A stretch of 64,000 nucleotides of DNA, from the NCBI GenBank assembly GCA_963605535.1, contig CAVCXB010000003.1, forward strand, positions 19,797-83,796. The letters run 5' to 3'. Positions 5,449-32,025 of the stretch are shown in pieces. Every line of letters begins with the position of its first letter. Positions within the stretch are counted from its first letter, which is position 1. Position numbers and translations under genes: made by a program. The stretch comes from Wujia chipingensis (lineage in GTDB: Bacteria > Bacillota > Clostridia > Lachnospirales > Lachnospiraceae). Below the pieces are notes generated by a model. That model was not told the origin of the DNA and did not search any database. It was given only the letters and a program-made list of their open reading frames with translations.

Positions 5449-5637
5449 TCTGAATTAGTCATGCTAATACCAAATGTTGATAGTGGTATCTGCATTTATC
5501 CTCCCAAAGCATGATATAGTATTTGGATCCCCGTCACATATAAACCTTGCATCATATCATGATTTTTGGCTAAGTAAGTGTAATTACCCCAAGTAAAACA
5601 AAAAAGTCGGCCAGCCCTATTTGGGGCTGGCCGTTTT
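5449..5637 (+). ncRNA. candidate small RNA A (anti-RBS seed)
   Basis: promoter upstream, terminator at end, no ORF, several stems (ATACCA/TGGTAT, CATGATAT/ATATCATG, TTAGTCA/TGGCTAA), seed CATTTATCCTCCC at 5493-5505. Confidence 0.45.
5601..5637. terminator. bidirectional intrinsic terminator
   Basis: A-tract, CGGCCAGCCC/GGGCTGGCCG stem, TTTT. Confidence 0.8.
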
Positions 5638-5672
5638 CGTGTGGTAATGTATTCTAGGTGGAATTTGATTGG

Positions 5673-6008
5673 CTATTCTGGCTGCTTGGATGGCTCGCCG
5701 TATTTCTCAAGCAGGTCCTCAAGCGATATCTGGATGACGATCGGCCTATTCTCGCCCATGTAGGGAATGGCCCGGAGCGTATTGTATTCAATGAACTCAT
5801 ACGCCTCGGTGAGAGAGCAGGAATCATCATCCAACGTATTGTCCTCGGCGAACTCGGAAGCCATTCTTCCCTCGTCGTAAATGACGCGGTTGTCATCCGA
5901 GATTCCAATGATCGAATTGTCGAAGTCAGGATTGTCGAGGAGGATGAATGAGGCTTCGATATCTTTTCCGTACGCGTCGATGGCGCGTCTCAGGATATCG
6001 TTTCTCAT
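5673..6008 (-). CDS. hypothetical phage protein
   Basis: ATGA overlap with upstream gene, AAAGGA SD. Confidence 0.75.
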   Translation of the reverse strand: MRNDILRRAIDAYGKDIEASFILLDNPDFDNSIIGISDDNRVIYDEGRMASEFAEDNTLDDDSCSLTEAYEFIEYNTLRAIPYMGENRPIVIQISLEDLLEKYGEPSKQPE

Positions 6009-6862
6009 CTGTCATCCTTTCCGAATATGGATGTGATGTCGGCGTACACATGGCTCATGCGCTTGACATATCCATCCTTGACGCCATCGACATGGCCATC
6101 AAATAGTTCGAGCAGAACCTTCTCGATGGTCTCGGCGGGCACGCCCGTCTTTCCAAGGCCATAGGCAATATCCACCGCCTTTGTGATGAACTCATGCTCC
6201 GTATAGCGAGGCTCGTCGTCGCTCTCATCTTCATCCGAATCTTCATCCGAATCCTCATCCGGCTTCTTCAGTTTTTTCGACAGCCCATCGAGCCAGTCGA
6301 GCCAATTGTCGAAATCGGTATCAAAACCAGGTTTGGCTTCACCTTTGGTTTCGTCATCGTCTTCGGACGGCTTTTCATCTTCATCCTCGTCATCTTCGGA
6401 GTTGACATCTTCCGTATAAATCAATGGGATGTCTTTGTATGATGTGTATGCGCGATGTTCGCATTCTTCATCATCTTCATTCTCATCCTCGCATTTGCCA
6501 TCATCAACACCTTCGACGGAATCGGTTTCGGTGTCGACATAGCCTTTGTCAGCAGAGACCGTGAAGCTGATCTTCTCTCCGGGCTCAAGCTGGATATCCA
6601 TCGATGCGCCATCCATCGTCTTAGGAGTCTTCGAAAACTCCTTCATCGAATCCGTCTTGAAGGCATATCCGTCGTCGGCATTCTGAAGCATGCCGATGAC
6701 GTCACTGATCGATTCCTCGATGAGATCGACATACATACCGAGCTCATCTCTGTACGTATGGTACGAATTGTTCATCTTGTCACTGAGCTCGGTGATTCCG
6801 GCAATGGCGCCCCTGACTTTCGCAAGCTTGTAGTTCACTTTCTTCAATTCATCTTTACGCAT
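6005..6862 (-). CDS. highly acidic hypothetical protein
   Basis: start MRKDELKKV at 6862 after AAAGGGG SD; long D/E tracts. Confidence 0.8.
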   Translation of the reverse strand: MRKDELKKVNYKLAKVRGAIAGITELSDKMNNSYHTYRDELGMYVDLIEESISDVIGMLQNADDGYAFKTDSMKEFSKTPKTMDGASMDIQLEPGEKISFTVSADKGYVDTETDSVEGVDDGKCEDENEDDEECEHRAYTSYKDIPLIYTEDVNSEDDEDEDEKPSEDDDETKGEAKPGFDTDFDNWLDWLDGLSKKLKKPDEDSDEDSDEDESDDEPRYTEHEFITKAVDIAYGLGKTGVPAETIEKVLLELFDGHVDGVKDGYVKRMSHVYADITSIFGKDDR

Positions 6863-6939
6863 CTTATTTTCCCCTTTCATTGGACATGATTGTGTTCCGT
6901 GGACCGAGTCCATCATGCAGCGCACCCCATGTGCCATAA

Positions 6940-6969
6940 AGTCTAGCACTGCGGAAACCAAATGTCAAC
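6940..6969 (-). promoter_or_regulatory. sigmaA-type promoter
   Basis: TTGACA-17 nt-TAGACT with TGn extension. Confidence 0.7.
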
Positions 6970-6970
6970 G

Positions 6971-7012
6971 AGAAAAAAGAAAAAGATGCTCTTTAGCTAG
7001 GAGAGCATCTTT
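6971..7012 (-). terminator. intrinsic terminator closing candidate sRNA B
   Basis: AAAGATGCTCT/AGAGCATCTTT stem followed by TTCTTTTTTCT on minus strand. Confidence 0.75.
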
Positions 7013-7264
7013 CTGCCGTTCGGTGGTAGCTAGTCACGTCGCGGCGCTATTTGGAAAGGAGTCCAAATGCGTGGTTCCGCAGATAGCGGCTGCGGTGTGT
7101 GTCATGTGTGGCGCAAAAATCCGGTGGGCTCGGCACAATCCATTCGCGGAAGAGGAAACCGCGTGGGCGGAGGAGATATTGCCGCCTTGCATTGCCGGCC
7201 GGCATCGGCCAAAAGTCGCCACATGCGGCTAGGGAACCGCAGGCACAGTCGCAATTCCTGTGCC
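6972..7264 (-). ncRNA. candidate structured small RNA B (~290 nt, several C/U-rich anti-SD loops)
   Basis: own promoter and terminator; at least seven stem-loops plus long-range TGTGGCG/CGCCACA pair; predicted start coincides with first stem. Confidence 0.6.
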
Positions 7265-7270
7265 GTGTAT

Positions 7271-7299
7271 ATTATCCCACGCCGCGCCCCAAAAGTAAA
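7271..7299 (-). promoter_or_regulatory. promoter for candidate sRNA B
   Basis: TTTACT-17 nt-GATAAT; same TTTACTTTTGG -35 context as the helicase promoter. Confidence 0.6.
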
Positions 7300-7380
7300 T
7301 AGGGACTTTTGTTGATTTTCCCCTTTCAAATCATCCGCCGCGAATGTATAATCATGTATATCACAGAAGGGGGAATCGAA

Positions 7381-7773
7381 ATGGGCTTGGATGTTCGGAT
7401 TATGCACGTCGCTCCGGAGCTCAGCGAGGATGCGAACAGCGTCATCTTCGAGGGCAGCGGCCGCATGACGTACGCATTCCTTAGGGAATGGGTTGGGGAC
7501 GAAAGATATGGCGAAGACATCATCTTGACGAAGGAGACGGCGGAAGAGCTGATCGATCTGGCGACAGGGCAGATGGCTGAGGTGTACATGGAGAGCAGCG
7601 AGAGCAAGGCGGCGTACGACCCAATTTCCGAGGCATGCGGTCTCGACAATCCGTACGGAATCGCCGAGTTCGTTCGTGTGATGATGATGGCCGAATCGGC
7701 AATCGCATACTACGATCGGCACAGGATTCCAGAGTCCGAGCGCGGACACTTCACGGTGGAGGCGGACTGGTGA
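7381..7773 (+). CDS. hypothetical phage protein (MGLD-start type)
   Basis: ATG 7381 after AAGGGGG SD and TG-TATAAT promoter. Confidence 0.75.
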   Translation: MGLDVRIMHVAPELSEDANSVIFEGSGRMTYAFLREWVGDERYGEDIILTKETAEELIDLATGQMAEVYMESSESKAAYDPISEACGLDNPYGIAEFVRVMMMAESAIAYYDRHRIPESERGHFTVEADW

Positions 7774-8087
7774 TGACAAGAAAGCAGATGTTCGACAGGC
7801 TGTACGATCTCGACTTCATCATACGTATGGACGGAAGAGGGAACATGACCCTGCGGCTGTTCAATCACACAGAGACATACCGCATTGACAGCGACGACTG
7901 CACGGCGCTCTACCGGAAGATCGCATCCGACTATTCCAGCGAGCTCGAGCTCTGCCGGGACATCAGCCGCGACATGAAGGGGAACCGGATGATCTTCTCC
8001 TACATGGCATACGCCTGGCTGTTCCTGCTCGCCGCATCGCTCATCGCCGCATTCGTCGCAGCGATATTGCTGACGGTCGGAAGATGA
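7773..8087 (+). CDS. hypothetical membrane protein
   Basis: TGATG coupling with upstream gene, GGAGG SD, C-terminal TM segment. Confidence 0.7.
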   Translation: MTRKQMFDRLYDLDFIIRMDGRGNMTLRLFNHTETYRIDSDDCTALYRKIASDYSSELELCRDISRDMKGNRMIFSYMAYAWLFLLAASLIAAFVAAILLTVGR

Positions 8088-8130
8088 CCGTCATACAACA
8101 CATGACACACGACACAGGGAGGATTTATTC

Positions 8131-8748
8131 ATGGGACGTGAAATTGGATTCGACGTATACGCAAAGGGACAGGACGACAGCGGTGGGAAGTACCTCCAGC
8201 GCCTCGAGCTCATCAACGATGACAACTGGGTCTGCGGGCGTACCGAGATCACCGACGGGTGGGGACGGTACTTCGACTGCAACCGCATGACCGACGAGTA
8301 CACGACGCCGGTATTCGTGAAGGATTTCGACGGATGGAAGTGCGAGGGCTATTCGAACAGACGCTTCAGCGCTTCCGGAAATGGCCCTACAAGGCTCGCT
8401 TTTGTTCCGTATGAGGAATTTACCGCGGCAGCAAAAGAAGAGGCTCTAGAGTGCCTCAAATCGCGCGATAAGAGGAAATCAGGCAAGACCGAGACCCTCA
8501 AGACGCTGAAGGAGCTCTACTGCACGACGATGTGCACGTATCTGACTCTGAAGGACGACGACGCGAAGATGGCCTGCGAGAAGCAGATGGATAAGGTGCT
8601 GAAGAAGATCGAATCGTTCGAGGAGGATGACGGCGATGGAGGGAACGACTACTTCGAGAATCAGGCCGAGGCCGTCCTGAAGCTCATCGACGACATGGAC
8701 AAGTTCATGTCGGTCGGATTGGTTGTCATACCGTTCTTCTCCGACTAA
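8131..8748 (+). CDS. hypothetical protein
   Basis: GGGAGG SD, ends at terminator. Confidence 0.8.
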   Translation: MGREIGFDVYAKGQDDSGGKYLQRLELINDDNWVCGRTEITDGWGRYFDCNRMTDEYTTPVFVKDFDGWKCEGYSNRRFSASGNGPTRLAFVPYEEFTAAAKEEALECLKSRDKRKSGKTETLKTLKELYCTTMCTYLTLKDDDAKMACEKQMDKVLKKIESFEEDDGDGGNDYFENQAEAVLKLIDDMDKFMSVGLVVIPFFSD

Positions 8749-8752
8749 GCAC

Positions 8753-8792
8753 AAAAAAAAAGACCCGCTGCATCAGTGGGTCTTTTTTTTTT
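8753..8792. terminator. bidirectional intrinsic terminator
   Basis: A-tract, GACCCGCTG/CAGTGGGTC stem, T-tract, between convergent genes. Confidence 0.9.
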
Positions 8793-8801
8793 GTGATCTT
8801 A

Positions 8802-10433
8802 CTAGATTTCCGGCCTGTGGTCTCTGTCGTAGGCGGCATCCATCACGGAGACGGAATCATCATCCCGGACATCCGAACCGTCCCTTCCGAGGAAGCCGTT
8901 GACGCGATGCAGGTCGCTTGCGAACGTATCGTCCGTGTAGTCCCTCTGCTCGTTGATGGCCTGGCGCATGCCCTGGTCGAGCCAGTTCTCGCTCGAGAAC
9001 ACATGGTAGACGACGGTCTCCGCCTTCTGCCCGAGTCGCCTCAGCCTTGCGAGGCCCTGCTGCCAGTCGCGGAACACGGGGTAGTCGAAGATGATGCACT
9101 TGCTGTATTCCTGGAGGTTGAGGCCGGTCGACCCCGTCTGCCAGTTCAGGATGAAGATGTTCTTGCGGTTGTTGAACTGCTGGTCCGGCGTCTGTGCGGC
9201 GTACGTGTCGTAGAAGTGCGTCGACTTGATGTCGCCCGAAAGCACGTCGATGGCATATCCGAGCCTGTCGCATATCGCGAATATCTCGAACAGCTCCGGG
9301 GTGAACGTGTAGAACAGCACGTAGTTGTCCGGGTTATCCGCGAGGAATCTCTCGAGCATGTCGAGCCTCTCCCTGCTGTACCAGGCGTACCTCTCGGAGT
9401 TGCCCTGGAATCCGATTGAGAGCTGCCTTGCCCTGAGCCAGAGCGCGCCTGCGGTCTCCGCAAGCCATTCCAGGCTCGGATAGGCTATGTTGCGGTAGAA
9501 CGGGTTGTTCTTGAGGTGCGGCGTGCTGTAGTCATGCGCATCATACGAATCCTGCAGGCGGACGTTCTTCGCCATGCAGTACATGAGGACGTCGTTTCCG
9601 GGAATTCTCTCCGACGTGAGCATCGTGAAGTCCTGTGTCTTTTCGTACGTATGCTCGACGAAGATCTGCTCGGGAAGCCTGACGACCGTGTCCGACTTGA
9701 TGGTGATTGCGTACTGATGGACGATGCCGTAGAGCTCCTCGACGTTCCTGTAGCCGATGATCGGCTGCTGGAATCCCAGCAGGCCGGGGCGGTTGTCCCG
9801 TATGGCGAAACGCTCGATGTAGGCGGTCTTGCTCATCGGGCATCCGAGCATCTTGAGCTGCGTCCACAGGTCGATGTATCCGGTCGTGAACGGCGTGCCG
9901 GTGAGGAGATACGTCCACACATGCTTCCTTGTGCACACCATGAGCTGCTTCTGCATCTGGATGCACGTCTTCGTCCTCTGCGAGGAGTAGTTCTTCAGCG
10001 AATGGCTCTCGTCGATGATGATGGCCGTGTTGCATCCGGCGCAGGATTTCACGAACGATGCGAGTATCGGACGCATGGGCGCCGACCCGCCATCCTTGTT
10101 GCGCACGAACAGCGACTCGTAGTTGATGATGAGGATCTGGCTTCTCGACTGGTCGCACTCCTCCGGCTTCGATTTCTTGTCGAGGATGTCGTATCCGTTG
10201 AAGATGCCCTTGTATGCCCACCAGAGGAACGATCCCTTCTTGTCGACCTTCTCGCTCGCCTTTGCGTTGATCGAGATGATGATGAGCTTCGTGCACTCAT
10301 GCTGCTCGGCGCACGCCAGCGAGAGCGGCGTCTTCCCGAGTCCGCAGTCAAGGAACAGGCCGTACGCCTGCCTGTCCTTCACCTGGTCGACTATCTTCCT
10401 CTGCCAGTCGTAGAGCATGTCGTATATTCTCAT
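8802..10433 (-). CDS. SNF2-like superfamily 2 DNA helicase
   Basis: LYDWQ, DCGLGKT (Walker A), IIIDESH, LTGTP, GSTGLNLQ, QGLARLRRLGQ; start 10433 after GGAGGAGG. Confidence 0.9.
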   Translation of the reverse strand: MRIYDMLYDWQRKIVDQVKDRQAYGLFLDCGLGKTPLSLACAEQHECTKLIIISINAKASEKVDKKGSFLWWAYKGIFNGYDILDKKSKPEECDQSRSQILIINYESLFVRNKDGGSAPMRPILASFVKSCAGCNTAIIIDESHSLKNYSSQRTKTCIQMQKQLMVCTRKHVWTYLLTGTPFTTGYIDLWTQLKMLGCPMSKTAYIERFAIRDNRPGLLGFQQPIIGYRNVEELYGIVHQYAITIKSDTVVRLPEQIFVEHTYEKTQDFTMLTSERIPGNDVLMYCMAKNVRLQDSYDAHDYSTPHLKNNPFYRNIAYPSLEWLAETAGALWLRARQLSIGFQGNSERYAWYSRERLDMLERFLADNPDNYVLFYTFTPELFEIFAICDRLGYAIDVLSGDIKSTHFYDTYAAQTPDQQFNNRKNIFILNWQTGSTGLNLQEYSKCIIFDYPVFRDWQQGLARLRRLGQKAETVVYHVFSSENWLDQGMRQAINEQRDYTDDTFASDLHRVNGFLGRDGSDVRDDDSVSVMDAAYDRDHRPEI

Positions 10434-10511
10434 CTTGAGCCTCCTCCCACGCATCGTGTATCATGGCGCCGGAATGATTCCGGCGCACCTCTTTTTCATT
10501 GCGGTCCCAAC

Positions 10512-10540
10512 ATTATACGGCATCGGATACCAAAAGTAAA
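10512..10540 (-). promoter_or_regulatory. promoter for helicase
   Basis: TTTACT-17 nt-TATAAT. Confidence 0.7.
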
Positions 10541-10608
10541 CATGCGCGGCGGTTTTTTCTACGGGGCGCATGCCGGATTATAATCACCTGAGGGAGGATG
10601 CAGACGGC

Positions 10609-11511
10609 ATGGAAGACATGAGACACAGGGAAGGGATGGAATGCATGAATGGCGCAGAAGAAGGGAAGGCGATTCCGAATCCAACGCCTAAGCCTAAGCC
10701 AAAGAGGAAGAGGACACGCAAGCCGAAGGCGGATCCGGCGAATGGGACGTACGCAGAGCCCAAGGCCGATGAGCCCGTCCCATACGTACGGCTTCCGTTC
10801 TCGGAGTATTACATCATCTGCTCGCGGAACTACACGCACCAGGAGACGCACGCCTGGCTTGCCGAGTACAGCGAGATCATATACAGGCACGGACGGCATA
10901 CACACCGGGTGAATTACCAGGTGCGCTACGACCATGTCCGCCACTGCATACAGGCGATATTCCAGCAGACCGCGGACAGGAGCGACTGGCGCGCCAACTT
11001 CGAGTTCGCCGGCAGGCTCTACCGGGAGCCGCTCGATCTCGGCGGAGGGAAGACGCTCGCCATGAGGGTACACCGCGGATGGGGCGACATGTGGAGGGCA
11101 TGCAAGAAGGCCGTGAGGCAGGAGATATCGCTTCTCCTGAAGGAGCATCCGGACGCGCACATCGAGGTGTTCGGATGGTCCCTGGGCTCGGCCATCGCGC
11201 AGATATGCGCCGAGGACGTGTTCTACCAGTTCTCACGCAGGCCGTACCTCTACACGTTCGGGAGCGTCAGGCCGTTCGCCGGAAGGAAGACGTGGCGGTA
11301 CGTGCAGGGATGCTGCGAGAAGGCGTACTGCTTCTACGACGTATGCGACATCGTGGGATACATGGTCCCGTTCCCGTGGTACATGTCCATCAGGCACTAT
11401 GCGCTGCACAGCGAGCGCTTCGGAATCCTGAAGCTGTTCAACCCGTGGAAGTTCCACACGCTCTACGGACAGGAATGGCTGTACGACGGAATCGACGAGT
11501 ACGAGTTCTAG
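10609..11511 (+). CDS. class-3 lipase / alpha-beta hydrolase
   Basis: VHRGW, nucleophile elbow GWSLG, YTFGSVR, DIVGYMVP, C-terminal His; start 10609 after GGGAGG. Confidence 0.8.
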   Translation: MEDMRHREGMECMNGAEEGKAIPNPTPKPKPKRKRTRKPKADPANGTYAEPKADEPVPYVRLPFSEYYIICSRNYTHQETHAWLAEYSEIIYRHGRHTHRVNYQVRYDHVRHCIQAIFQQTADRSDWRANFEFAGRLYREPLDLGGGKTLAMRVHRGWGDMWRACKKAVRQEISLLLKEHPDAHIEVFGWSLGSAIAQICAEDVFYQFSRRPYLYTFGSVRPFAGRKTWRYVQGCCEKAYCFYDVCDIVGYMVPFPWYMSIRHYALHSERFGILKLFNPWKFHTLYGQEWLYDGIDEYEF

Positions 11512-11523
11512 GAAGAAGAGAAA

Positions 11524-11553
11524 GGCCACCTGCTTTCGCGGGTGGCCGTTTTT
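11524..11553 (+). terminator. intrinsic terminator
   Basis: GGCCACCTGC-TTTC-GCGGGTGGCC then GTTTTT. Confidence 0.8.
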
Positions 11554-11692
11554 GTTTGCCGTACGCATCGCATTGATAGTTTTATTCACCATGCTCGATA
11601 CGTACTGATGCGTATTGGCGTGCAGAAAATGCAATCTATCTGCGAAAACATTGCAGAATCACATGGAGCAATGCCATCGAAGGGGATGTTTC

Positions 11693-14600
11693 TCACTTGC
11701 CGGATGGCTTGGCTGGCTTTGGCTGCTTGAGTGTCGACAAGACAGGCTTGCCGCATGGCTTGACGTACTTGTCTGTCTTGGCTGGTTTTGCGGTCTTTGC
11801 GGGCTTTGCGGTCTTCACGGAGGATCCGGAAGACTTCCTGGCTGCCTTCCTGGCCTTCTCCGCCTTCAGCTTCTCCTTTGCCGCGGCCTTCCTGCCGATC
11901 TTCGTTCCGGGCCTGTAGCATCTCTTCACGGGGTCCCAGTCCGGATCGTCCTTGACCCTGGTGTGCCTGATGCGGCCGTCGAGGACGTCCTCCTCGGTGA
12001 GGCGTATCTTGCCCTTCCCCGTGCTGAACTTCGCCACGTCCCTCGGCTCCTCCGAATAGATGCGCTCGCCCTCCTCGTACTTCCTGTCCGCGTCGGACTC
12101 CATCGCGGTCTTGTACATGCCGACCTTCGAGGAGAACGCCGCGATGCGGTCTGCGAGCGACCTGATGGATTCGGCGGTATGCTGCGGAAGCGAGGCGAAC
12201 GCGCCGCTGCGCTCGATGCCCATGTAGATCCTGCGGAACTCGCCGGAGAACTCGCTGAGCAGCTCGAGCGTGTCCATGTCGTAATGCTTCGATATGTCGA
12301 TCGGGGCGTCGATGTCCGTCAGGGCGGATGCGGCCCCGTCCACGGCGGACGGGGACACGGTCATGTCCGCTTCATCGTCCAGCGGCTTCCCGATGGGCTC
12401 CGAATACAGCTTGGCAAGGCTGGCGGAATCGAGCTTCGAATAGTCCCTGACGGCATCCCTCGGATCGTATGCGGCGTCGAGTATCGGATCCCACGGCAGC
12501 TGGCCGTTGAGCGCCGGAACCGAATCGTTCACCTGCTGCATGGCATGCATGGAGGATATGGCGGAGAACGCCACGGCGATCCTGTGCGAGTCCTCGGCCA
12601 TGAGCCCCTGGGGCGGGATCTGTATCTCGAGGATGTCCCTGTCCGTGCCCAGGGCGCGCTTTGCGTACTCGTTGACGAACATGCCCATGGCGATGCGGTA
12701 CTTCGACGCGAAGGAGTCGAGCTCGTTCTCGCCGCAGAGATTCAGTACGCACTGCAGGGCGAGGTTGTCGAACTCGATCATCTTCCTGTTCGTCTCGTCA
12801 TAGCGCCTCATGCGGATGTCCGCGAGGCGGCCGTCGAGGCTCATGCATAAGAGGCGGTAGTACAGCGCGATGACGTTCTTCTTCGGGAGCATGTCGAGCG
12901 CATCGACGATGGCCGACGTGTCGGACTCCGTGAGGTGGTAGAGCTTTATGACCTCGCCGTCGGAGAGCATCGAGAGGTCCTTGCCGAGGAGCTTGTCGTC
13001 CATCGAGAGGAGCGCGAGGTCCCCGATGAGCTTCCTCCTGTCTGCGTATGGAATCTTGTCCGTCTCCCCGCCCACGAACGTGATGGGCCTCCTCAGCTCT
13101 GCCGGGACGAAGAGCTCGTTGAGCGACTCGATGCGCTCGTTGTACGTGATGACGGAATGGACGGACGGCGGCATGGAATTCTTCTTCTTGTCGTCGTACG
13201 CCATGTCGTACTCCCTGGATGTGATGCGGTGCGCATACGCCAGGTTCGACGCCGCCAGGTACGTGGCAGCCTGTCTGTGGCGCAGGATCTGCTCCTTCGA
13301 GAGGACGGCCCGCCTCTTCCTTCCGTCTACGGCGAACGTGCCGGGCGTGTTGAACTCGCGGTTCCAGTTGACGATGTCCCTCTCGTCGAGCTCCTCGTAT
13401 CCGGACCACGTGTCGTCATGGCCGAAGAGGGCCTCCATCACGGCGACGATCTCCTTCCTGCGGTAGTTTCCGTACGTGCGGCGGTTGATGTCCGCCCTGT
13501 GGTGCAGATTGTCATCGCCCACGGTGAAGCAGTCGTCGAGCGGAATGCCGCCCGATCGGTACCGGCCGTCCCTCTCGGACAGGTTGCGGATGCTGTAGAG
13601 GCGCTTCCTCGATCGGAACCACTGCATGAGCAGGGGGAACTCGTTGTACGCGAGGCGCCTCCGGTCGAGGGAGAGGAGCATCGACATGAGCGCCTTCATG
13701 GCGTCCTCGGAGATGTTGTCGAGGTAGCAGTACACGTCGACGGGCCTGATCCTGATGGCCTCGTCGATGGTCTCTGCCGGCCTGTTGAAGATGAGATGCT
13801 CCGGGTTGGCGCATATGCCATGGTAGTTCGAGTACACGGTTGATGTGTACGTGCGCCGGAAATGCCTGTGGTACGAGTCGATGGACGAGATGGCCTCGTC
13901 GAGCGAGGCGAGGGACCCGGGAAGGGCGCCGGAGGCGACGGCATCCCCGAACCCGGGCGTCTGCCCGGTCTCCGGATCGGACGTGGGGATTCCCGCTGGC
14001 GTCTCCTGGTCGTCATCCAGCACGTATCCGAAATCGACGCAGTCTCCGTCCTCGTCGAACTCGACGTCGTCCTGATATGTATCATGTTCACTCGTGCCGT
14101 ATACATCATGTTCACTTTGATGAACGCTTCGGTGAACATCGTCGGCGGATGATCTACAGAGGGGGGATGATTCGACAGATGATGCGGTGGAGGATGGGCT
14201 GAATGATTCGACAGCGGGTGTGGAAGCGGGTGATGGATGGATGGGCGTGCCTATCGGAGGATTGTGCGCGACGGCATAGGATTCGCCCGGGTCGATCTCT
14301 ACGTGCGAGATTCTCTCTCGGAGGGCGTCTACGGTGAACGAGGATGGCACGGATGGGCCGGATGATGACTTGGATGATGACTTGGATGGCGTCTCCTCCG
14401 TTTCCGTGCCGTCTTGCGCACCGGCACAAGCCGGTGCCAATGCGGGCGAGGACGATGGGGATGATGGGGATGGGTGTGCGGAGATGGATGTGTGTGGGGC
14501 TGATGCGAATGGGGTGGGTATCTCAAGCTCGGCGGAATCCGAGCTCAGGCTTTCCGCGATGGCGGACTGGCATTCTACGAAGAGGGGTGTCAGATCGGAT

Positions 14601-14767
14601 ACGAGACGTACGTACTCGGAACGCTGCTTCTCCTCGGGAAGGCTCCGCATGTTCTGGAGGGCGACATCATAGCTCTCGAGAACGGAAGAGGGGACTTCTT
14701 TGTGCAGATACTGTACGTATCTATTCAACGTATGAAGGAACTGCGAGAATTTCAATGTGTATGACAT
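11693..14767 (-). CDS. large hypothetical protein (1024 aa) with Ser/Pro-rich linker and Lys/Ala/Pro-rich C-terminal tail
   Basis: long ORF with AAGGA SD and TG-TATAAT upstream; tail KTAKPAKTAKPAK. Confidence 0.85.
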   Translation of the reverse strand: MSYTLKFSQFLHTLNRYVQYLHKEVPSSVLESYDVALQNMRSLPEEKQRSEYVRLVSDLTPLFVECQSAIAESLSSDSAELEIPTPFASAPHTSISAHPSPSSPSSSPALAPACAGAQDGTETEETPSKSSSKSSSGPSVPSSFTVDALRERISHVEIDPGESYAVAHNPPIGTPIHPSPASTPAVESFSPSSTASSVESSPLCRSSADDVHRSVHQSEHDVYGTSEHDTYQDDVEFDEDGDCVDFGYVLDDDQETPAGIPTSDPETGQTPGFGDAVASGALPGSLASLDEAISSIDSYHRHFRRTYTSTVYSNYHGICANPEHLIFNRPAETIDEAIRIRPVDVYCYLDNISEDAMKALMSMLLSLDRRRLAYNEFPLLMQWFRSRKRLYSIRNLSERDGRYRSGGIPLDDCFTVGDDNLHHRADINRRTYGNYRRKEIVAVMEALFGHDDTWSGYEELDERDIVNWNREFNTPGTFAVDGRKRRAVLSKEQILRHRQAATYLAASNLAYAHRITSREYDMAYDDKKKNSMPPSVHSVITYNERIESLNELFVPAELRRPITFVGGETDKIPYADRRKLIGDLALLSMDDKLLGKDLSMLSDGEVIKLYHLTESDTSAIVDALDMLPKKNVIALYYRLLCMSLDGRLADIRMRRYDETNRKMIEFDNLALQCVLNLCGENELDSFASKYRIAMGMFVNEYAKRALGTDRDILEIQIPPQGLMAEDSHRIAVAFSAISSMHAMQQVNDSVPALNGQLPWDPILDAAYDPRDAVRDYSKLDSASLAKLYSEPIGKPLDDEADMTVSPSAVDGAASALTDIDAPIDISKHYDMDTLELLSEFSGEFRRIYMGIERSGAFASLPQHTAESIRSLADRIAAFSSKVGMYKTAMESDADRKYEEGERIYSEEPRDVAKFSTGKGKIRLTEEDVLDGRIRHTRVKDDPDWDPVKRCYRPGTKIGRKAAAKEKLKAEKARKAARKSSGSSVKTAKPAKTAKPAKTDKYVKPCGKPVLSTLKQPKPAKPSGK

Positions 14768-14960
14768 GTGTTTTTAATCCTTAATGCGATTATATCATAC
14801 ACGAAAAATGACAAAAATTCCACCATATTGAAATTTAATATAAATTTTATGTGAAAATATTTTTTGACATTTGTCCAATAAAATAAAAATTTTTGCAAAA
14901 ATTTCACGTGAAATTGTCGAAAAAGTGAAAGTTACACAAAATAATCTTTTGTAAACATAA

Positions 14961-15022
14961 AAATGCGCACAAATGAGCATGCAAAAATGAGCACAAATGA
15001 GCAAATGACATTGCAAAAATGA
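14961..15022 (+). repeat. degenerate CA(C/A)AAATGA repeats
   Basis: GCACAAATGA, GCAAAAATGA, GCACAAATGA, GCAAATGA, GCAAAAATGA. Confidence 0.7.
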
Positions 15023-17630: not shown

Positions 17631-17680
17631 TCTGTCAATCTCCTTTTTCCATCCGCCATTATTATATACCAAATGTCAAC

Positions 17681-21180: not shown

Positions 21181-21182
21181 TT

Positions 21183-22457: not shown

Positions 22458-22472
22458 ATCTTTTTTCCTCCT

Positions 22473-22976: not shown

Positions 22977-22995
22977 TATTTGCCATACCCTCCTT

Positions 22996-23391: not shown

Positions 23392-23451
23392 CTTTTTTTC
23401 CTTTCTTTCATGTCGTCAGTACGTATACTGGCGGGCTGCGCCCCCAGTATA

Positions 23452-24279: not shown

Positions 24280-24281
24280 AT

Positions 24282-24912: not shown

Positions 24913-24927
24913 TGAATCACCTCCTTT

Positions 24928-25230
24928 CTAGTCTAGGAACCTCAGCATCTTTCGGACATCTTCCTTGCTGAAATTCTTCGTATCGATCATACGGTCGGCT
25001 TCATCCCATAACACATTGTACGTACTGGCGAGGGATTCATTGTGATTCTCATAATGCTCCCAAATCTTCCAGTTCAATACGCACACGAGCTCTGCGAAAT
25101 CCATCGCATTGATTCTCGCCTGCGGAAGAACCTTTCTGTACGTATCCTTCACGGCATCGACACCGAACTTGTCGGCGATGCTGAAGTCATTCCAATACGT
25201 AGTCTTGAACTGATAACCCTCTGCTAACAT
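24928..25230 (-). CDS. hypothetical phage protein
   Basis: AGGAGG SD; TTYWNDFSIADKFG...ELVCVLNWKIW. Confidence 0.8.
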   Translation of the reverse strand: MLAEGYQFKTTYWNDFSIADKFGVDAVKDTYRKVLPQARINAMDFAELVCVLNWKIWEHYENHNESLASTYNVLWDEADRMIDTKNFSKEDVRKMLRFLD

Positions 25231-25964
25231 ACTTTTGTTTCCTCCTTTAATCTGTATGTCTTTTCAACAATCATCTCCGGATTCTTGCGCTCCTTTCCCT
25301 TCACATGCGGATGTACGTATACAACCTTCCCTGATTTCCTCATGTGTCTGTAATGACCGCGAACGTTCCACGCCGGACATGTGATTGTGCTATGATGCTT
25401 GGTGACTCTGCGTTCCCAATCATCGCTCAGATGAATCTGTCTTACGAGATTCACTTCTTTTTTATACTTGATCTTGCCATGCTTTCTGGATGCCACTGTA
25501 CGTACTGATTCGGTTGATTCATTGACGGCGAGCGTCGGAAGATAGTCCATGAGCATGATGTTTATTTCGAAGAATCGATTGACCATACAGATTATGAATT
25601 TTTTGTCCTCCGGCGTATTCCCGAATTTCTGATCGATGACTTCTCCATTTTTTGTGGCTCTCACTTGAATGAATCCGAGAACATCAAGATCATTCTCCGG
25701 CTTGACATCTACAATGAGGGAAGTCTTCAGTACGTATTTGCTTATATCCGGTCGGGTTGACGTACATTCCTGGAACACTTTGAGCCTGCGCTTACACGTA
25801 TCGAAATAGAACGTCGATGTGACAGTCGATGTGGGTGCGATGCTGATGTTCCTGAACTCCGTCAACGCAAAGTCCGTGATGCCATAGAGACGATTTCTGT
25901 ACGTATTATGAATCAACGGATCTATTCTTTCCTCATCCTTTACATAAGTCTTGATGACATCCAT
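25224..25964 (-). CDS. phage protein with C-terminal VRGH.R motif
   Basis: WNVRGHYR...VHPHVKG; start MDVIK after AAAGGA. Confidence 0.8.
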   Translation of the reverse strand: MDVIKTYVKDEERIDPLIHNTYRNRLYGITDFALTEFRNISIAPTSTVTSTFYFDTCKRRLKVFQECTSTRPDISKYVLKTSLIVDVKPENDLDVLGFIQVRATKNGEVIDQKFGNTPEDKKFIICMVNRFFEINIMLMDYLPTLAVNESTESVRTVASRKHGKIKYKKEVNLVRQIHLSDDWERRVTKHHSTITCPAWNVRGHYRHMRKSGKVVYVHPHVKGKERKNPEMIVEKTYRLKEETKVC

Positions 25965-26175
25965 ATCCTTTTTCCTTTCTTCTCTGCGTTGGCGGCGAAG
26001 CCCCAACCTCAGAGAGTTTTTTCAACAAACATCTTTTCTTTCATTACATAACAACCATCCTTTCTCAACGTCGATTTGGGTACAATAATAGGCTCGCTTA
26101 TGAGCGAACCTATTATTGCGTTTTTTGTTTTTCCTTGGCAACGGAGAACTGAGTTCTTCTATGATTACCATATTC

Positions 26176-26204
26176 ATTATATCAATTGGATAATCAAATG
26201 TCAA
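26176..26204 (-). promoter_or_regulatory. sigmaA-type promoter
   Basis: TTGACA-17 nt-TG.TATAAT. Confidence 0.85.
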
Positions 26205-26206
26205 CA

Positions 26207-26240
26207 AGAAAAAAGACCCGCGGTGGATGAATCCGCGGGC
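26207..26240 (-). terminator. intrinsic terminator
   Basis: CCCGCGG/CCGCGGG stem then TCTTTTTTCTT on minus strand. Confidence 0.8.
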
Positions 26241-26300
26241 GTAATGGAAAAAGAAGCTAATGGAATACCATCTATTTTGAAAGAGAGAAATAAATGATAC
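26207..26300 (-). ncRNA. candidate small RNA C (~95 nt, anti-RBS seed)
   Basis: promoter at 26307-26335, terminator at 26207-26240, seed CATTTATTTCTCTCTTTC. Confidence 0.5.
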
Positions 26301-26306
26301 TTTATT

Positions 26307-26335
26307 ATATTAGCATCTTTCTGTACGTATGTCAA
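26307..26335 (-). promoter_or_regulatory. promoter for candidate sRNA C, with TACGTACAG in its spacer
   Basis: TTGACA-TACGTACAGAAAGATGC-TAATAT. Confidence 0.6.
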
Positions 26336-26988
26336 GATAAACCTAAGTTATCAGAGATGTCCTTCAACTCGGAATCCCCGCGATCATAATTGTAATCATA
26401 CTTATGCTCGGCATTCTGTACGTAGAATCTTCCACCCCAATCACCGCTCTCGTCGATGTACTCGACTTCGAATTCGGTATTTGGGTACTGTCTGGAGAGT
26501 TCATCGATGATTGGGATCGCCGGTGACCACGCCGTATCAAACTCGATATAGCCGTCTTCATGGCTTACGTGCGTGTTGTTTGCGTTCCATTTTGTTCCCC
26601 ATTTGTCAATGCTCCAGTCATACCAGTTCGCATATCCATACTTTACGTAATTGTCGGCGCACTGCTTGCCGAGTTTCAGCAACTCATCCTTAGGCTTATC
26701 CTTACATTCTTCTGTCAATCTGCATGTATCAGCCTCGAACTTCACTTCATCATATTTGCCATGATACATCTTCGTCAGGATCATATGTCTGGTGATGACA
26801 TCCGTCATGCTACGTACATACATATGAAGTCCTGCATTTGATTTACAGCTTACTTCGACTTCGAGTTCCTTCGGCATCGGAATGATGAGGTTGAAGTCGA
26901 TGGCGTTATCCGTGAAGTACATCTCTTCAATGCTCTTGATGACTGCTGTGCTGTTCGTATGCAGTCTTTGTGTTACCCAATTTGGCAT
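26332..26988 (-). CDS. DUF1281/YubB ferredoxin-like domain protein
   Basis: MPNWV, DFNLIIPMP, NWYDWSIDKWGTKWNA, FDTAWSP. Confidence 0.85.
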   Translation of the reverse strand: MPNWVTQRLHTNSTAVIKSIEEMYFTDNAIDFNLIIPMPKELEVEVSCKSNAGLHMYVRSMTDVITRHMILTKMYHGKYDEVKFEADTCRLTEECKDKPKDELLKLGKQCADNYVKYGYANWYDWSIDKWGTKWNANNTHVSHEDGYIEFDTAWSPAIPIIDELSRQYPNTEFEVEYIDESGDWGGRFYVQNAEHKYDYNYDRGDSELKDISDNLGLS

Positions 26989-27051
26989 TTCTTTTTTTCC
27001 TTTCTTTATTTCCCCTCGTCGGGCGAAGCCGACGAGGGTACTGTACGTATT

Positions 27052-28179: not shown

Positions 28180-28180
28180 T

Positions 28181-29113: not shown

Positions 29114-29143
29114 GATACGTGTTGCTCCTTTCCTCCTCGTGCG

Positions 29144-29401
29144 TTAGCCGAGGATATGCCTCTTCATCTTAGCCTGTCTGATGATCTTGTGTCCCTCGAT
29201 GGTGAATGCGATTGTGTAGCAGGTGATATTCTCATCATCGTCATGGGCGACTGATTTCGAATCGATCTTATCTCCTAGACGGACATCCTTCTCGAAGAGG
29301 CCACGGACATAGTCCGTGGCCTCTTCATACGTATCGAACACTTCGACCTCAGGGTCGAGTCTGTTGTCCGAATGGACAACACTGTAGACTTTGCTTGTCA
29401 T
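29144..29401 (-). CDS. hypothetical protein
   Basis: GGAGG SD, ATGA coupling. Confidence 0.7.
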   Translation of the reverse strand: MTSKVYSVVHSDNRLDPEVEVFDTYEEATDYVRGLFEKDVRLGDKIDSKSVAHDDDENITCYTIAFTIEGHKIIRQAKMKRHILG

Positions 29402-30222: not shown

Positions 30223-30761
30223 CTGTCTTTACCTCCTTTTTCAAAGAAATGCTTCTTCCACTTCGTCAGCTCTTCTTCTGTACGTATCTTCTCGAAGTCT
30301 TCCAGATAAATCCCATCCGATCCTATCAATGTACCCTCCTTATACACTGCGAACTCGAATTGACCGTCTTCATACAGCCATATGTGCGCGTCATATGGAT
30401 GATCGCTGAGGCCATATATGAATATGGCTTGGCTACGTGTCATCTGAGGTACGAGACCTTCTACGACAATATTGCCATCGGAACAGAATCCGTGCTGTTC
30501 GAGCATCTCTCCTGCCAATCCATCTTCATTCATATCAGTCCATTCCTCTATACGTATGCGCCCATTCTCATTGAAGAGAATCATTCCACGGGTGTTGCCT
30601 TTGCACTGCAACGAATACGTACAGCCAGCATAGTCGATATCAATGATATTTCTGCCATACCAGATGTTGTCTCTCTGCTTGCCCGTCAGGATCCTTTTGT
30701 CATAGACCGTGACTTTCGCGAAGCGTCTAATCGCTTCAACTGCTTCCATCATTGCTGTCAT
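30216..30761 (-). CDS. hypothetical protein
   Basis: operon packing. Confidence 0.7.
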   Translation of the reverse strand: MTAMMEAVEAIRRFAKVTVYDKRILTGKQRDNIWYGRNIIDIDYAGCTYSLQCKGNTRGMILFNENGRIRIEEWTDMNEDGLAGEMLEQHGFCSDGNIVVEGLVPQMTRSQAIFIYGLSDHPYDAHIWLYEDGQFEFAVYKEGTLIGSDGIYLEDFEKIRTEEELTKWKKHFFEKGGKDRC

Positions 30762-30779
30762 TGTGTCATTCTCCTTTCA

Positions 30780-31460
30780 TTACCACATCTTATCTCCGAA
30801 CGCCGTTATCACAGCGATCTTATCATTGACAGTTGATTTGTATTCTGCATTCCCTGGTGAAGGAATTCCGCTTAGGATATCTGGAACATCCATCGTCGGA
30901 TCAATCTCACTGTGTAAGTAATCCGCCATTCGGTTCAGTTCATCATCTGTTCCTCCGAAGAAGACTTGCTTATACGTATTTGTTCCTTCTTTATAGATCT
31001 CAACGACAAATCGAGCCGTCGGGAACCACACATCACTGGTATCTGTATTGTAATAGACTCCAATCAACGGATTATACGCCAGTGCGTACATCTTAAGCAG
31101 AGGATATTGATCTTCCAGAAGGGTTTGTATCGGGTTATACGCCGTACAATACGTAGCCACCGTTGTTATCTTTACATACGGCAGGACAACGTTTCCTTTA
31201 ACATCCCTTTCAAGCAGTTCAATTCTTTTGACGAGAGTTCCACAGCACGCATCATAGATGCATTTATTGACCAAATCCATCTTCGTATACCCTAATACAA
31301 AAAAGAAATCCTCCAAGGTATAATTGATTCCTGCAAGATGTCTGCTACGTATTGCGTCTAACGGGCTCTCACCATCGAACCCTGCGGTTATATTATTGTA
31401 TAACTCCAACAACGAACATGTATCTCCTGTTATTACATACGTAATATTCATTACTGACAT
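30780..31460 (-). CDS. divergent YubB ferredoxin-like protein
   Basis: TYVITG...ITT....YPLLKMYALAYNPLIGVYYNTD pattern; start 31460 after AAAGGAG. Confidence 0.55.
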   Translation of the reverse strand: MSVMNITYVITGDTCSLLELYNNITAGFDGESPLDAIRSRHLAGINYTLEDFFFVLGYTKMDLVNKCIYDACCGTLVKRIELLERDVKGNVVLPYVKITTVATYCTAYNPIQTLLEDQYPLLKMYALAYNPLIGVYYNTDTSDVWFPTARFVVEIYKEGTNTYKQVFFGGTDDELNRMADYLHSEIDPTMDVPDILSGIPSPGNAEYKSTVNDKIAVITAFGDKMW

Positions 31461-31537
31461 GTCTGATTTCTCCTTTTCTATTTTATATTTACTGCCGTCT
31501 GGCGGTGCGGGCAATCACCCGCGCCCCATTCGGCATT

Positions 31538-31906
31538 CTACGTATGAGCACTGATGACGATGATCCAATCCTCATCATCAATCTCTTTTGGCTCTACGTA
31601 CCGACAATCATCTGCACATCTTGTTACGAGTGCATACTTCCCTTGGAAGAGTGTTGGACCTGACTCAGAGATATGCTCTCTGCAGTCATACCCATTCCAC
31701 TTATTGTTGATCTCTTTGACATCTACGTACCGACCAGAGATCGCCTTGCCATGACATCCGTCATCCCAACAGCGATAATAATAATCGCACACACCGAACA
31801 CACCATCCCACGTGAACATCTCACGGTTGGCTTCGATGAAGTCTTGACACTCCTCGATTGTCTGGAACTCATCATGGCGCATCACAACCAATCCCAACTC
31901 AGTCAT
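31538..31906 (-). CDS. hypothetical protein
   Basis: AAAGGAGG SD. Confidence 0.75.
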   Translation of the reverse strand: MTELGLVVMRHDEFQTIEECQDFIEANREMFTWDGVFGVCDYYYRCWDDGCHGKAISGRYVDVKEINNKWNGYDCREHISESGPTLFQGKYALVTRCADDCRYVEPKEIDDEDWIIVISAHT

Positions 31907-31944
31907 TATTGTTTTCCTCCTTTATAATTCCTTACGTCGCCACA

Positions 31945-32025
31945 GATACAGAAACAGCCCCAACACTATCCATGCTAGGGCTGTCTCCGCAAAGGAAATA
32001 AAATGTCAAAAGTCAATCGCTTGAC
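31945..32025 (-). ncRNA. candidate small RNA D or regulatory leader (anti-RBS seed)
   Basis: promoter at 32032-32060; seed GACATTTTATTTCCTTT; 12-bp G.U-containing stem ACAGCCCTAGCA/TGTTGGGGCTGT then TTCTGT. Confidence 0.45.

Follow-up and report, generated by a model that had tools for sequence, protein, structure and literature searches.

The four short intergenic units A to D of the window, which is the whole 64-kb stretch of DNA analysed here, are on balance best read as four different intergenic elements of the minus-strand early region, among them one non-coding RNA (unit B), and not as one sRNA family. For unit B the most probable reading is a genuine ncRNA of about 290 nt with transcription of its own; its sequence anatomy, membership in a promoter family, enrichment of anti-Shine-Dalgarno (anti-SD) loops and the absence of a coding signal are all observed. 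Its transcription and strand, like the function of all four units, we infer from the sequence. The initial annotation had proposed an arsenal of four related sRNAs. Its reading is partly supported overall, and the family of four is overstated: no sequence beyond 7-9-mers is common to the units, D is a 5' UTR and A lacks independent evidence. The window is a phage contig in which the minus strand carries the early genes and the plus strand the structural ones; the features discussed below are collected in the table.

Table. Positions in the 64-kb window of units A to D, their parts and the neighbouring transcription signals
Feature	Position	Strand	Evidence or remark
Unit A, unsupported candidate	5449..5637	+	spacer between terminator 5608-5633 and promoter 5389-5361
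Class-1 promoter next to A	5389-5361	-	borders unit A spacer
A, micro-ORF of 19 codons behind GGGAGGATAAATG	5436..5495	-	gene strand; SD energy -10.2 kcal/mol
A, SD+start motif	5493-5505	-	located by sequence
A, bidirectional terminator, tails ACUUUUUUGU (-) and UUUUCGUGUG (+)	5608..5633	.	ends minus-strand operon 6862-5673
Class-1 promoter next to B	6968-6940	-	directly after B terminator; strong, serves downstream genes
Unit B, candidate ncRNA of ~290 nt, several hairpins, 57% GC	6972..7264	-	fold, promoter, terminator
B, intrinsic terminator, 11-bp stem, loop CCUAGCUAA, then UUUUUCUUUUUUCUC	6970..7012	-	6982-7012 plus T-run
B, hairpin with anti-SD loop 3, CUCCUU (7056-7061)	7049..7068	-	fold and loop test
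B, hairpin with anti-SD loop 2, UUUCCUCUU (7150-7158)	7145..7163	-	fold and loop test
B, hairpin with anti-SD loop 1, CAAUAUCUCCU (7171-7181)	7166..7186	-	fold and loop test
B, three SD+start motifs	7053-7069, 7148-7165, 7169-7181	+	located by sequence
B, class-2 promoter, TTTACTTTTGG-N12-GATAAT	7271..7299	-	TTTACT-17-GATAAT with TG; 11-nt motif family
Bidirectional terminator closing the next minus-strand gene upstream of B	8753-8791		hairpin scan
TTTACTTTTGG 11-mer, copies besides B promoter	10540(-), 39995(+), 40049(+), 40810(+)		motif search
Class-1 promoter, 12/12	26176..26204	-	begins 3 nt past C terminator; heads operon starting 25964
Unit C, possible 94-nt RNA, also 3' UTR of gene 26332-26988	26207..26300	-	fold
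C, terminator and U-run	26217-26239	-	also ends operon starting at P32060
C, CU-rich single strand	26241-26264	-	fold
C, 5' hairpin, 13 bp, loop CUCUCUUUCA	26265-26300	-	fold
C, SD+start motif	26279-26296	+	located by sequence
C, candidate promoter, TTGACA-17-TAATAT with TG, 10/12	26307..26335	-	overlaps stop codon of 26332-26988
Unit D, 5' leader of gene 31538-31906	31907..32025	-	promoter, leader, SD and gene contiguous
D, SD of the gene, AAAGGAGG	31916-31923	-	25 nt after hairpin
D, 20-bp hairpin	31948-31990	-	fold
D, single strand UUUUAUUUCCUUU	31991-32003	-	fold
D, SD+start motif	31991-32007	+	located by sequence
D, 5' hairpin	32004-32026	-	fold
Class-1 promoter, 11/12	32032..32060	-	drives operon 31906 to 26332

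The promoter of unit B is of a type that recurs in the phage. Its TTTACTTTTGG 11-mer is found in nine exact copies in the assembly, five on the 88-kb contig and four in the other 3.44 Mb. A promoter of this type also lies 5' of the SNF2 helicase gene and of the start of the structural module, and the distance to the -10 box is identical in B, at the SNF2 gene and at 50725. The pattern TTKACWTTTRR has 14 matches against 0.61 expected, a number that 0 of 100 shuffles reached. The predicted +1 of B, at about 7264, is the first base of the 5' hairpin H1. At the other end, no minus-strand gene upstream is served by the B terminator, the nearest upstream genes (7381-8748) lying on the plus strand.

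All RNA structures considered here are single-sequence predictions. Unit B, which has a single copy in the 3.5-Mb assembly, folds with an MFE of -108.7 kcal/mol (z -3.46). Its body without the terminator only modestly beats shuffles (z -1.97), and part of the stability is compositional because B lies at the edge of a GC-rich segment. Anti-SD cores (CUCC, UCCU or CCUC) occur in three of the seven predicted hairpin loops, or in four of eight including the terminator loop, whereas dinucleotide shuffles average 0.25 such loops and 0 of 300 reach three. Loop 3 and the start of its 3' stem together read CUCCUUUC, an 8-nt stretch that also occurs in the 16S 3' tail, and the tail GGATCACCTCCTTTC is present in the assembly. 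Units A, C and D display no such loop in this strict test. The ORFs of B have G+C values of 0.55-0.63 at all three codon positions and lack the GC3 periodicity of the neighbouring genes (GC3 0.75-0.87), and they have no family match in PHROGs or Pfam. Among the ten ORFs in or beside the four units none matched PHROGs at E <= 0.1, and nine had no Pfam match, the remaining one being sub-threshold (16.3 bits against a cut-off of 22.7). These results agree with the earlier statement that the units contain no credible ORF.

The initial annotation rested on reverse complements of an SD plus start codon in each unit, and all six quoted motifs were indeed found on the strand given. With the plus strand of 1-39700 as background, the chance of an equally good site is P = 0.37 for D, 0.13 for C and 0.03 for the best site of B, and the three clusters opposite B have a Poisson P of 0.02; for A, a chance of about 0.2 was estimated from the density in the whole window. 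Only in B do the motifs exceed chance; in the other three units they are as frequent as expected at random. Across the 3.5-Mb assembly, no gene start carries an exact trans copy of any of them. A sigmaA-like promoter and a terminator hairpin had likewise been assigned to every unit. The promoters of B and D stand, that of C is a plausible candidate and that of A (9/12) is at chance level; the terminator of B stands as well, those of A and C are shared with operons, and the hairpin of D has no clean U-tract. The generic sRNA attributes, namely an own promoter, an own Rho-independent terminator and no ORF, are all present in B, while C combines a plausible promoter with a terminator common to the upstream operon, D is without a terminator and A has neither a promoter above chance nor a terminator of its own.

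Unit C folds well (z -4.95), and only the minus strand of its body is structured (z -3.83 versus -0.28). The predicted +1 (26300) is the first base of its hairpin. Ten of the 15 minus-strand promoter matches of this quality in 1-41000 are intergenic, and the TTTGG extension of the phage promoter families is absent from the C promoter. The upstream operon requires the C terminator anyway. According to the available text of PMC4132741, LhrC binds G-rich SD regions and blocks translation with CU-rich sites that are present three times over: one lies in a loop, one is single-stranded and one is in the terminator loop. Unit C shares this three-part layout with LhrC1-5 of Listeria monocytogenes (RF00616), aligns to the whole model and has CU-rich sequence at the three positions, yet without UCCC: its sites read CUCUCUUUC, UUCUUUUUCC and AUCC, whereas those of LhrC each contain UCCC. 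Homology is not established because the match at 26208-26318(-), with 25.3 bits and an E of 0.054-0.13 in searches of very small size, stays far below the gathering score of 110; LhrC is also absent from the gathering-score Rfam scan of the whole window. C may be a short RNA laid out like LhrC and transcribed from a promoter at the end of gene 26332-26988, or, just as well, no more than the structured 3' UTR of that gene.

Unit D forms the 5' leader of the operon that follows, whose promoter is 32060-32032. The 20-bp hairpin of D, whose tail AUCUGUGG lacks a clean U-tract, is probably a stabiliser or processing site. Hairpins of the 5' stabiliser or RNase III type occur in early mRNAs of the Bacillus phage SP82, and D resembles them in its order of strong promoter, 5'-terminal hairpin, perfect 20-bp hairpin, SD and gene. 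Compared with promoter-proximal terminated leaders, D has a weak U-tract (UGUUUCUGU). D also contains two more -35-like boxes, at 32016-32006 and 32009-32001, neither of them with a -10. The second, TTGACATTT, has as its complement the AAATGTC end of the D motif and with it the ATG; the SD-like AAAGGAAAT of the motif is complementary to the single strand UUUUAUUUCCUUU that follows directly downstream. Rfam had no match for D at E <= 5.

Unit A is a terminator plus a spacer. Its supposed promoter (5414-5442) is of a score class counted 9 times versus 6.5 +/- 2.9 in shuffles. The body fold is not significant (z -1.29 on the plus and -0.31 on the minus strand), the CCUCCC motif sits in an internal loop and not in a hairpin loop, and the hairpin 5608-5633 has its better T-run on the minus strand. 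The micro-ORF at 5436..5495, for which the promoter scan found no promoter, provides an alternative reading of the A motif.

Rfam yielded no match at gathering score in the window and only noise at E <= 5 over 5300-7450, in line with the earlier remark that the units are not a described family; the families of RNAIII and other UCCC-loop sRNAs are presumably included in Rfam 15. In S. aureus RNAIII and in other UCCC-loop sRNAs (RsaE, SprD, FsrA), C-rich loops pair with the SD, as cited in the available text of PMC4132741. The comparison with RNAIII drawn by the initial annotation fits B, with its loops, promoter and own terminator; the case for C, as a CU-rich sRNA of the LhrC type, is weaker. 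In particular, B has C-rich anti-SD sequence in hairpin loops above chance and, like RNAIII and the UCCC-loop sRNAs, is a multi-hairpin RNA with three or four loops complementary to GGAG; in contrast to them it encodes no peptide, and its loops copy the 16S anti-SD CUCCUUUC instead of UCCC. With LhrC, B shares the logic of redundant loop sites, but it is three times longer and GC-rich, with CUCCU loops; both B and C are phage-borne and single-copy, whereas LhrC is chromosomal and multicopy. According to the available text of PMC3091779, the streptococcal csRNAs have an unpaired region with sequence antisense to both SD and AUG, and such accessible complementarity to SD plus start codon is the feature noted earlier in the present units. 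The csRNAs have two stem-loops, an anti-TIR in the unpaired linker and CiaR-dependent promoters; in B the anti-SD lies in loops and the anti-start inside stems, no csRNA match was found in Rfam, and the promoters are of TTGACA or TTTACT types. Phage-borne base-pairing RNAs, as proposed for B, are known in c4 of P1/P7 and in the prophage RNA SprY, and the P1 c4 RNA blocks an RBS via its loops (available text of the review PMC12197685). By contrast to B and C, for which target searches found no such partner, c4 arises by processing of an operon transcript and pairs at defined complementary sites with one cognate phage mRNA.

Target prediction at translation starts, which the initial annotation had suggested, gave no target of B, C or D better than dinucleotide shuffles. 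In the accessibility-corrected prediction for B over 789 TIRs all five shuffles had lower best energies than B itself, and over 3860 TIRs the same was true of five of five shuffles for C and three of three for D. No homologue of B was found, and for one neighbouring gene the sole close relative (P0001, 90%) is represented by its protein alone.

That there is no independent RNA among the four, all of them being cis elements of a tightly packed phage transcription map, appears rather unlikely to us. The 6S RNA of lambda PR'-tR' is a promoter-proximal terminated leader of a phage operon, and B would in this case be a similar leader in class-2 (middle or late) transcription, terminated near the promoter but continuing into genes 6862-5673 once termination is overcome, or else a decayed GC-rich remnant at the border of acquired DNA. 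Such an account fits the recurrence of a terminator directly followed by a promoter (at 6968, 17679 and 26204), the possible double role of T-runs as UP elements, the upstream operons that explain the terminators of A and C, the use of the B promoter type by protein-coding units, the target predictions without signal and the position of B at the boundary of the segment 7000-14800 with its 56-63% GC. It leaves the loop-displayed anti-SD motifs of B, matched by 0 of 300 shuffles, unexplained; moreover, a read-through leader is not needed because the downstream genes already have the strong class-1 promoter 6968-6940, and no antiterminator gene was recognised.

Far less probable is an arsenal in which all four units act in trans, each blocking a specific host or phage SD+start region. 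The six motifs exist, intergenic promoters on the minus strand precede B, C and D, and the putative promoter of A and that of B each diverge from a neighbour, P5389 with a gap of about 24 bp from -35 box to -35 box and P7325 at about 25 bp, respectively. Against this, the motifs of A, C and D arise by chance with P = 0.13-0.37, the units share no sequence, the assembly holds no exact targets and no prediction beats shuffles; the hairpin of D lacks a U-tract and is followed 25 nt later by the SD of the gene, a -35 box accounts, through its complement, for the ATG end of the D motif, and A has a chance-level promoter and an unstructured body. Most improbable of all, in our view, is that B acts on the plus strand, either with its AGGAG/GGA loops as a decoy for a CsrA-type GGA-binding protein or C-rich host sRNAs, or through SD+start sites that begin small peptides. 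On that strand the loops do read AAGGAG, AAGAGGAAA or AGGAGAUAUUG, the fold reaches the lower absolute energy (-119.7 versus -106.8 kcal/mol) and an ATG at 7067 opens a frame of 82 codons. However, the plus-strand body has a z of only -0.94, the frame shows neither GC3 periodicity nor a family match, both an upstream promoter and a downstream terminator are absent, the T-run of the B terminator exists on the minus strand only, and a U-G pair in one stem, as read from the fold, becomes a C-A mismatch.

Under the preferred reading of four different elements with B as an ncRNA, B would be transcribed from its phage TTTACTTTTGG-type promoter and end at its private intrinsic terminator. The transcript would display three hairpin loops, four with the terminator loop, copying the anti-SD core of 16S rRNA, and by analogy with LhrC and RNAIII these redundant loops might pair with SD regions of mRNAs and block translation initiation. 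As a more daring suggestion, which we consider quite unlikely, B with its four redundant loop copies of the 16S anti-SD tail could be a general mask of SD sites, a soluble mimic of the mRNA-docking sequence of the ribosome, that damps the translation of strong-SD host and early phage mRNAs at the late switch, with C as a second, LhrC-like member. The median SD energy is -10.3 for early genes (n=40) and -8.75 for structural genes (n=22).

The two phage-specific promoter motifs provide a usable transcription map of an otherwise unannotated phage. Cataloguing of phage-encoded trans-acting sRNAs is just starting. The available text of a 2025 review (PMC12197685) does not mention Gram-positive, and its sole Staphylococcus example is the prophage RNA SprY. 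If the proposal for B is true, the source of such an RNA would be a lytic-type phage of a Gram-positive gut bacterium. A multi-loop anti-SD RNA expressed from the phage's own promoter class would then extend the principle of RNAIII and LhrC to translation control by phages, and would give simple experimental access to early-to-late switching or host shut-off.

The initial annotation grouped four units of the phage contig (A to D; see table) as an arsenal of trans-acting RNAs blocking ribosome-binding sites (RBSs), each carrying the antisense of a Shine-Dalgarno (SD) sequence plus start codon. All six quoted motifs are found on the strands claimed, but in A, C and D they occur at chance level and do not define a set. 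For each ATG, GTG or TTG in the window, the 15 nt upstream were paired with the 16S tail, the core of which, GGATCACCTCCTTTC, is found in the assembly. The best sites reach -10.2 kcal/mol in A, -8.9 in C and -6.1 in D, while B holds sites of -12.8, -11.4 and -8.2 kcal/mol. Relative to the plus strand of 1-39700, with the four units left out, sites at the level of D or better have a density of 5.79 per kb (P = 0.37 over its 81 nt) and those at the level of C or better 1.51 per kb (P = 0.13); sites equal to or better than the best of B occur at 0.10 per kb (P = 0.03), and its three separate clusters have a Poisson P of 0.02. For A we estimate P at about 0.2 from the whole-window density. In D, the ATG-holding end of the motif is a TTGACATTT box (32009-32001) in reverse complement, and no sequence beyond 7-9-mers is common to the four units.

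B is the sole unit in which the initial observation exceeds chance. An anti-SD core lies in three of its seven predicted hairpin loops (CAAUAUCUCCU, UUUCCUCUU and CUCCUU), or four of eight counting the terminator loop, compared to a mean of 0.25 in dinucleotide shuffles, none of 300 of which reaches three. The promoter is a class-2 member (one of two phage promoter families described below), with its predicted +1 (about 7264) coinciding with the start of a 7-bp 5' hairpin, and the terminator, with UUUUUCUUUUUUCUC, is minus-strand specific. No gene upstream on the minus strand needs this terminator, because the neighbouring genes (7381-8748) run on the plus strand and a bidirectional terminator at 8753-8791 ends the minus-strand gene that comes next. 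A pseudogene or small-protein gene in place of an RNA was rejected, and the initial statement that no credible ORF is present holds, since the five ORFs of B have flat codon-position GC (GC1/GC2/GC3 0.51-0.65, versus near 0.55/0.40/0.75-0.87 in real neighbour genes) and no significant family match. The minimum free energy fold reaches -108.7 kcal/mol (z = -3.46 relative to shuffled sequences), a single-sequence prediction whose stability is inflated by the GC-rich setting; removing the terminator leaves z values of -1.97 (minus strand) and -0.94 (plus strand), and the absolute fold energy of the region is lower on the plus strand. Taken together, these predicted features would give B the anatomy of a structured-RNA gene. 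A partnership of B with 8098-8117 via the inverted repeat I7 was rejected, as it is same-sense for an RNA of the minus strand and no more than expected by chance among 25 pairs.

Coordinates of the units and associated features (11-mers for class 1; P-names give the first coordinate of a promoter)
Feature	Position	Strand	Remark
Unit A	5449-5637	+	
Unit B	6972-7264	-	
Unit C	26207-26300	-	
Unit D	31945-32025	-	
Hairpin of A	5608-5633		bidirectional
Terminator of B	6982-7012	-	
Promoter of C		-	TTGACA-17-TAATAT with TG; overlaps stop codon of 26332-26988
Class 1, P5389	5379-5389	-	GTTGACATTTGG-N12-TATAAT; motif family
Class 1, P6968	6958-6968	-	as P5389
Class 1, P26204	26194-26204	-	as P5389
Class 1, P32060	32050-32060	-	as P5389
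Fifth class-1 box	17669-17679	-	no -10 box at class-1 spacing
Class 2	7289-7299	-	GTTTACTTTTGG; B
Class 2	10530-10540	-	GTTTACTTTTGG; SNF2 helicase gene
Class 2	39995	+	GTTTACTTTTGG; structural module start
Class 2	40049	+	GTTTACTTTTGG; structural module start
Class 2	40810	+	GTTTACTTTTGG; structural module start
Class 2	50725	+	GTTTACTTTTGG; gene at ~50793-51211
Leader hairpin	26086-26119	-	
Leader hairpin	25985-26017	-	
Perfect palindrome	15181-15227		
Perfect palindrome	15308-15354		
Perfect palindrome	15590-15622		
Inverted repeat	15602-15653 / 15821-15872		52 nt
Tandem repeats	near 14959-15022		short, AAATGAGCA

The promoter families emerge from overrepresented motifs. TTKACWTTTRR occurs 14 times versus 0.61 expected, a count reached by none of 100 shuffles, and TTGACATTT seven times versus 1.05; among these matches we recognise class 1 and class 2. 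Four class-1 sites head early operons and the 17679 copy precedes one, and a terminator lies directly before the class-1 box at 6968, 17679 and 26204. Class-2 units, B counted among them, are of the TTTACTTTTGG type, and a TATAAT-like box follows 12 nt past the motif at four of the six sites. At 40049 and 40810 the distance to the TATAAT box downstream is about 42-46 nt, and the class-2 motif may hence serve not as a -35 box but as a site for an activator or an alternative sigma factor. The phage contig carries both 11-mers at 40-50 times the density of the remaining assembly (four class-1 and five class-2 copies in 88 kb versus four and four in the other 3.44 Mb), and ten of the 15 minus-strand promoter matches of at least 10/12 (or 9/12 with TG) in 1-41000 are intergenic. 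A leader of about 205 nt (25965-26175, minus strand) separates the 12/12 promoter 26204-26176 from gene 25224-25964; seen from the plus strand, its two stable hairpins resemble intrinsic terminators with long stretches of T, and they could insulate against antisense transcription or make up a structured leader.

The contig (88 kb, in an assembly of 3.5 Mb, 285 contigs and 45% GC) is a phage. Its plus-strand genes from about 39990 include those for a portal protein, a Dit-like tail protein and a baseplate J protein; the minus-strand array from 1 to about 39700 consists mostly of genes of unknown function, together with a FolD-like gene, DNA methyltransferases, an HNH fusion and the SNF2 helicase, and all four units are located in its intergenic gaps. 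Between these divergent early and structural modules lie about 290 nt of non-coding, hairpin-rich DNA (39700-39990) with at least five GC-rich stem-loops. B sits at the left edge of a segment (7000-14800) of 56-63% GC, versus about 45% for the contig, which looks like an acquired module. This segment holds three small plus-strand genes, the SNF2-type helicase (8802-10454) with weak similarity to DrmD/ZorD, a class-3 lipase-like gene (10570-11511) and a 1024-residue protein (11693-14767) with no family match. The adjoining 14770-16000, about 1.2 kb of non-coding DNA of 31% GC with palindromes and repeats, may be a replication origin or regulatory hub. Five short contigs (C194, C228, C242, C246 and C248) carry 16S 3' ends with differing flanks; the assembly probably mixes rRNA operons of more than one organism, which makes the host assignment of the phage contig by binning uncertain.

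D was proposed as an independent sRNA, but it is the 5' leader of gene 31538-31906: no promoter other than P32060 (32060-32032, 11/12) was found between this gene and gene 32057-32644, and the predicted transcript consists, in order, of a small 5' hairpin, UUUUAUUUCCUUU, a perfect 20-bp hairpin with the tail AUCUGUGG and, 25 nt after the hairpin, the SD AAAGGAGG followed by ATG. The 20-bp hairpin may stabilise the transcript, mark a site of its processing or act as a weak attenuator. At 32001-32026 (minus strand) the leader opens with the palindrome GTCAAGCGATTGAC, followed by two overlapping -35-like boxes (TTGACTTTTGA and TTGACATTT) with no -10 box, which may form an operator or polymerase-pausing site beside P32060; an opposite-facing plus-strand site, TTGACA-17-CACAAT, is located at 32021-32049.

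A is unlikely to be an independent RNA. Its hairpin, whose T-run is better on the minus strand, terminates operon 6862-5673; its proposed plus-strand promoter matches at 9/12, a class found nine times versus 6.5 +/- 2.9 expected (5 kb); its body without the terminator folds no better than shuffles (z = -1.29 on the plus, -0.31 on the minus strand), and its CCUCCC sits in an internal loop. Read along the gene strand, the motif is a strong SD and precedes an ORF of 19 codons (5495-5436), for which no promoter was found. The spacer between the A-side terminator and promoter measures 208 nt; a THF or other riboswitch before the FolD-like gene was discarded given that Rfam has no match and the promoter of that gene lies downstream of A. 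The predicted +1 of C, 26300, opens a 13-bp hairpin with the 10-nt loop CUCUCUUUCA; next come a CU-rich single strand of 24 nt and the terminator. Folding of the hairpin depends strongly on the strand (z = -3.83 for the minus versus -0.28 for the plus strand), and the promoter is devoid of the family TTTGG extension. The terminator doubles as the end of the eight-gene operon from P32060, and C may therefore be just a structured 3' UTR; as an RNA in its own right we regard it as possible, if short of probable.

No exact copy of any of the six motifs is present at a gene start elsewhere in the assembly, and near matches (1-3 mismatches) are generic RBSs. Our interaction scan combined duplex with opening energies (accessibility-corrected): C, D and A were run against 3860 SD-bearing candidate starts, with shuffles of C and D on the same set, and B and A with their shuffles against a subset of 139 phage and 650 host starts. 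The best corrected energies are -17.2 for C, -13.0 for D, -17.7 for A (-13.3 on the subset) and -11.3 for B, and no target of any unit is an outlier; shuffled controls are at least as good throughout (C 5/5, D 3/3, B 5/5, A 5/5). The scan gives no support to specific long seeds; real RNAs are more structured than shuffles and hence penalised, so that short loop-to-SD contacts are compatible with it. The top match of B, to the translation-initiation region of the SNF2 helicase gene near 10433 (-27.6 kcal/mol before and -11.3 after correction), is only a lead, being no better than shuffles. The first anti-SD loop of B and adjacent stem bases (7159-7179, minus strand; CUCCUCC..CCACGC) are complementary to this region, which reads GCGUGGGAGGAG at about 10420-10445 (minus strand), in a duplex interrupted by a bulge of 2-3 nt.

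The Rfam gathering scan of the whole window returned 0 matches and the tRNA/tmRNA search none; E-value scans of 5300-7450, 25900-26400, 26150-26360 and 31850-32120 yielded sub-threshold noise save for a weak LhrC alignment, and D has no Rfam match. Neither B nor C qualifies as a member of any family. Near and distant searches of the phage collection found no match, and a DNA search of 100 related genomes only the assembly itself and one 51-nt chance match. Protein 5673-6008 has one weak match among 400 genomes of the family (G039), in which the promoter motif is not enriched (16 matches versus 13 in the control). Five neighbouring proteins have no match in viral contigs or only distant loci (L004-L013); metagenome contigs gave nothing, then one 20-residue match, and genome contigs no match. 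The protein of gene 7381-7773, the neighbour of B, has two homologues among 11 candidates from 5.8 billion clusters, P0001 (90%) and P0002 (40%), both known as proteins without DNA. Loop-anchored DNA patterns hit at least 111 viral loci, none with B-like GC stems among the matches listed, and two sites in genomes, of which the one inspected, L129, has no GC stems; the phage, genome and metagenome collections searched yielded no DNA relative.

Blocking of RBSs by accessible CU- or C-rich sequence is established in Firmicutes. PMC4132741 describes three redundant sites in LhrC (one in a loop, one single-stranded and one in the loop of the terminator) and UCCC motifs in RNAIII, RsaE, SprD and FsrA. 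PMC3091779 reports anti-SD and anti-AUG sequence in csRNAs, and PMC12197685 pairing phage RNAs, such as P1 c4 at an RBS and prophage SprY. The LhrC model aligns full length to the C region (26208-26318, minus strand), with CU-rich sequence of C falling on loop A, on the single strand and on the loop of the terminator, but at 25.3 bits versus a gathering score of 110 this is a likeness in layout and no membership. The initial observation is partly confirmed, and its interpretation partly supported: the idea of RBS-blocking sRNAs fits B, with its anti-SD loops, class-2 promoter and own terminator, and C possibly, but not a set of four. From its predicted structure and signals, B is a good candidate phage sRNA with multiple anti-SD loops; we consider it somewhat likely to be an independent RNA, and its action on SD sites less likely than not. 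B and C would be unrelated additions to a known kind of RBS-blocking RNA.
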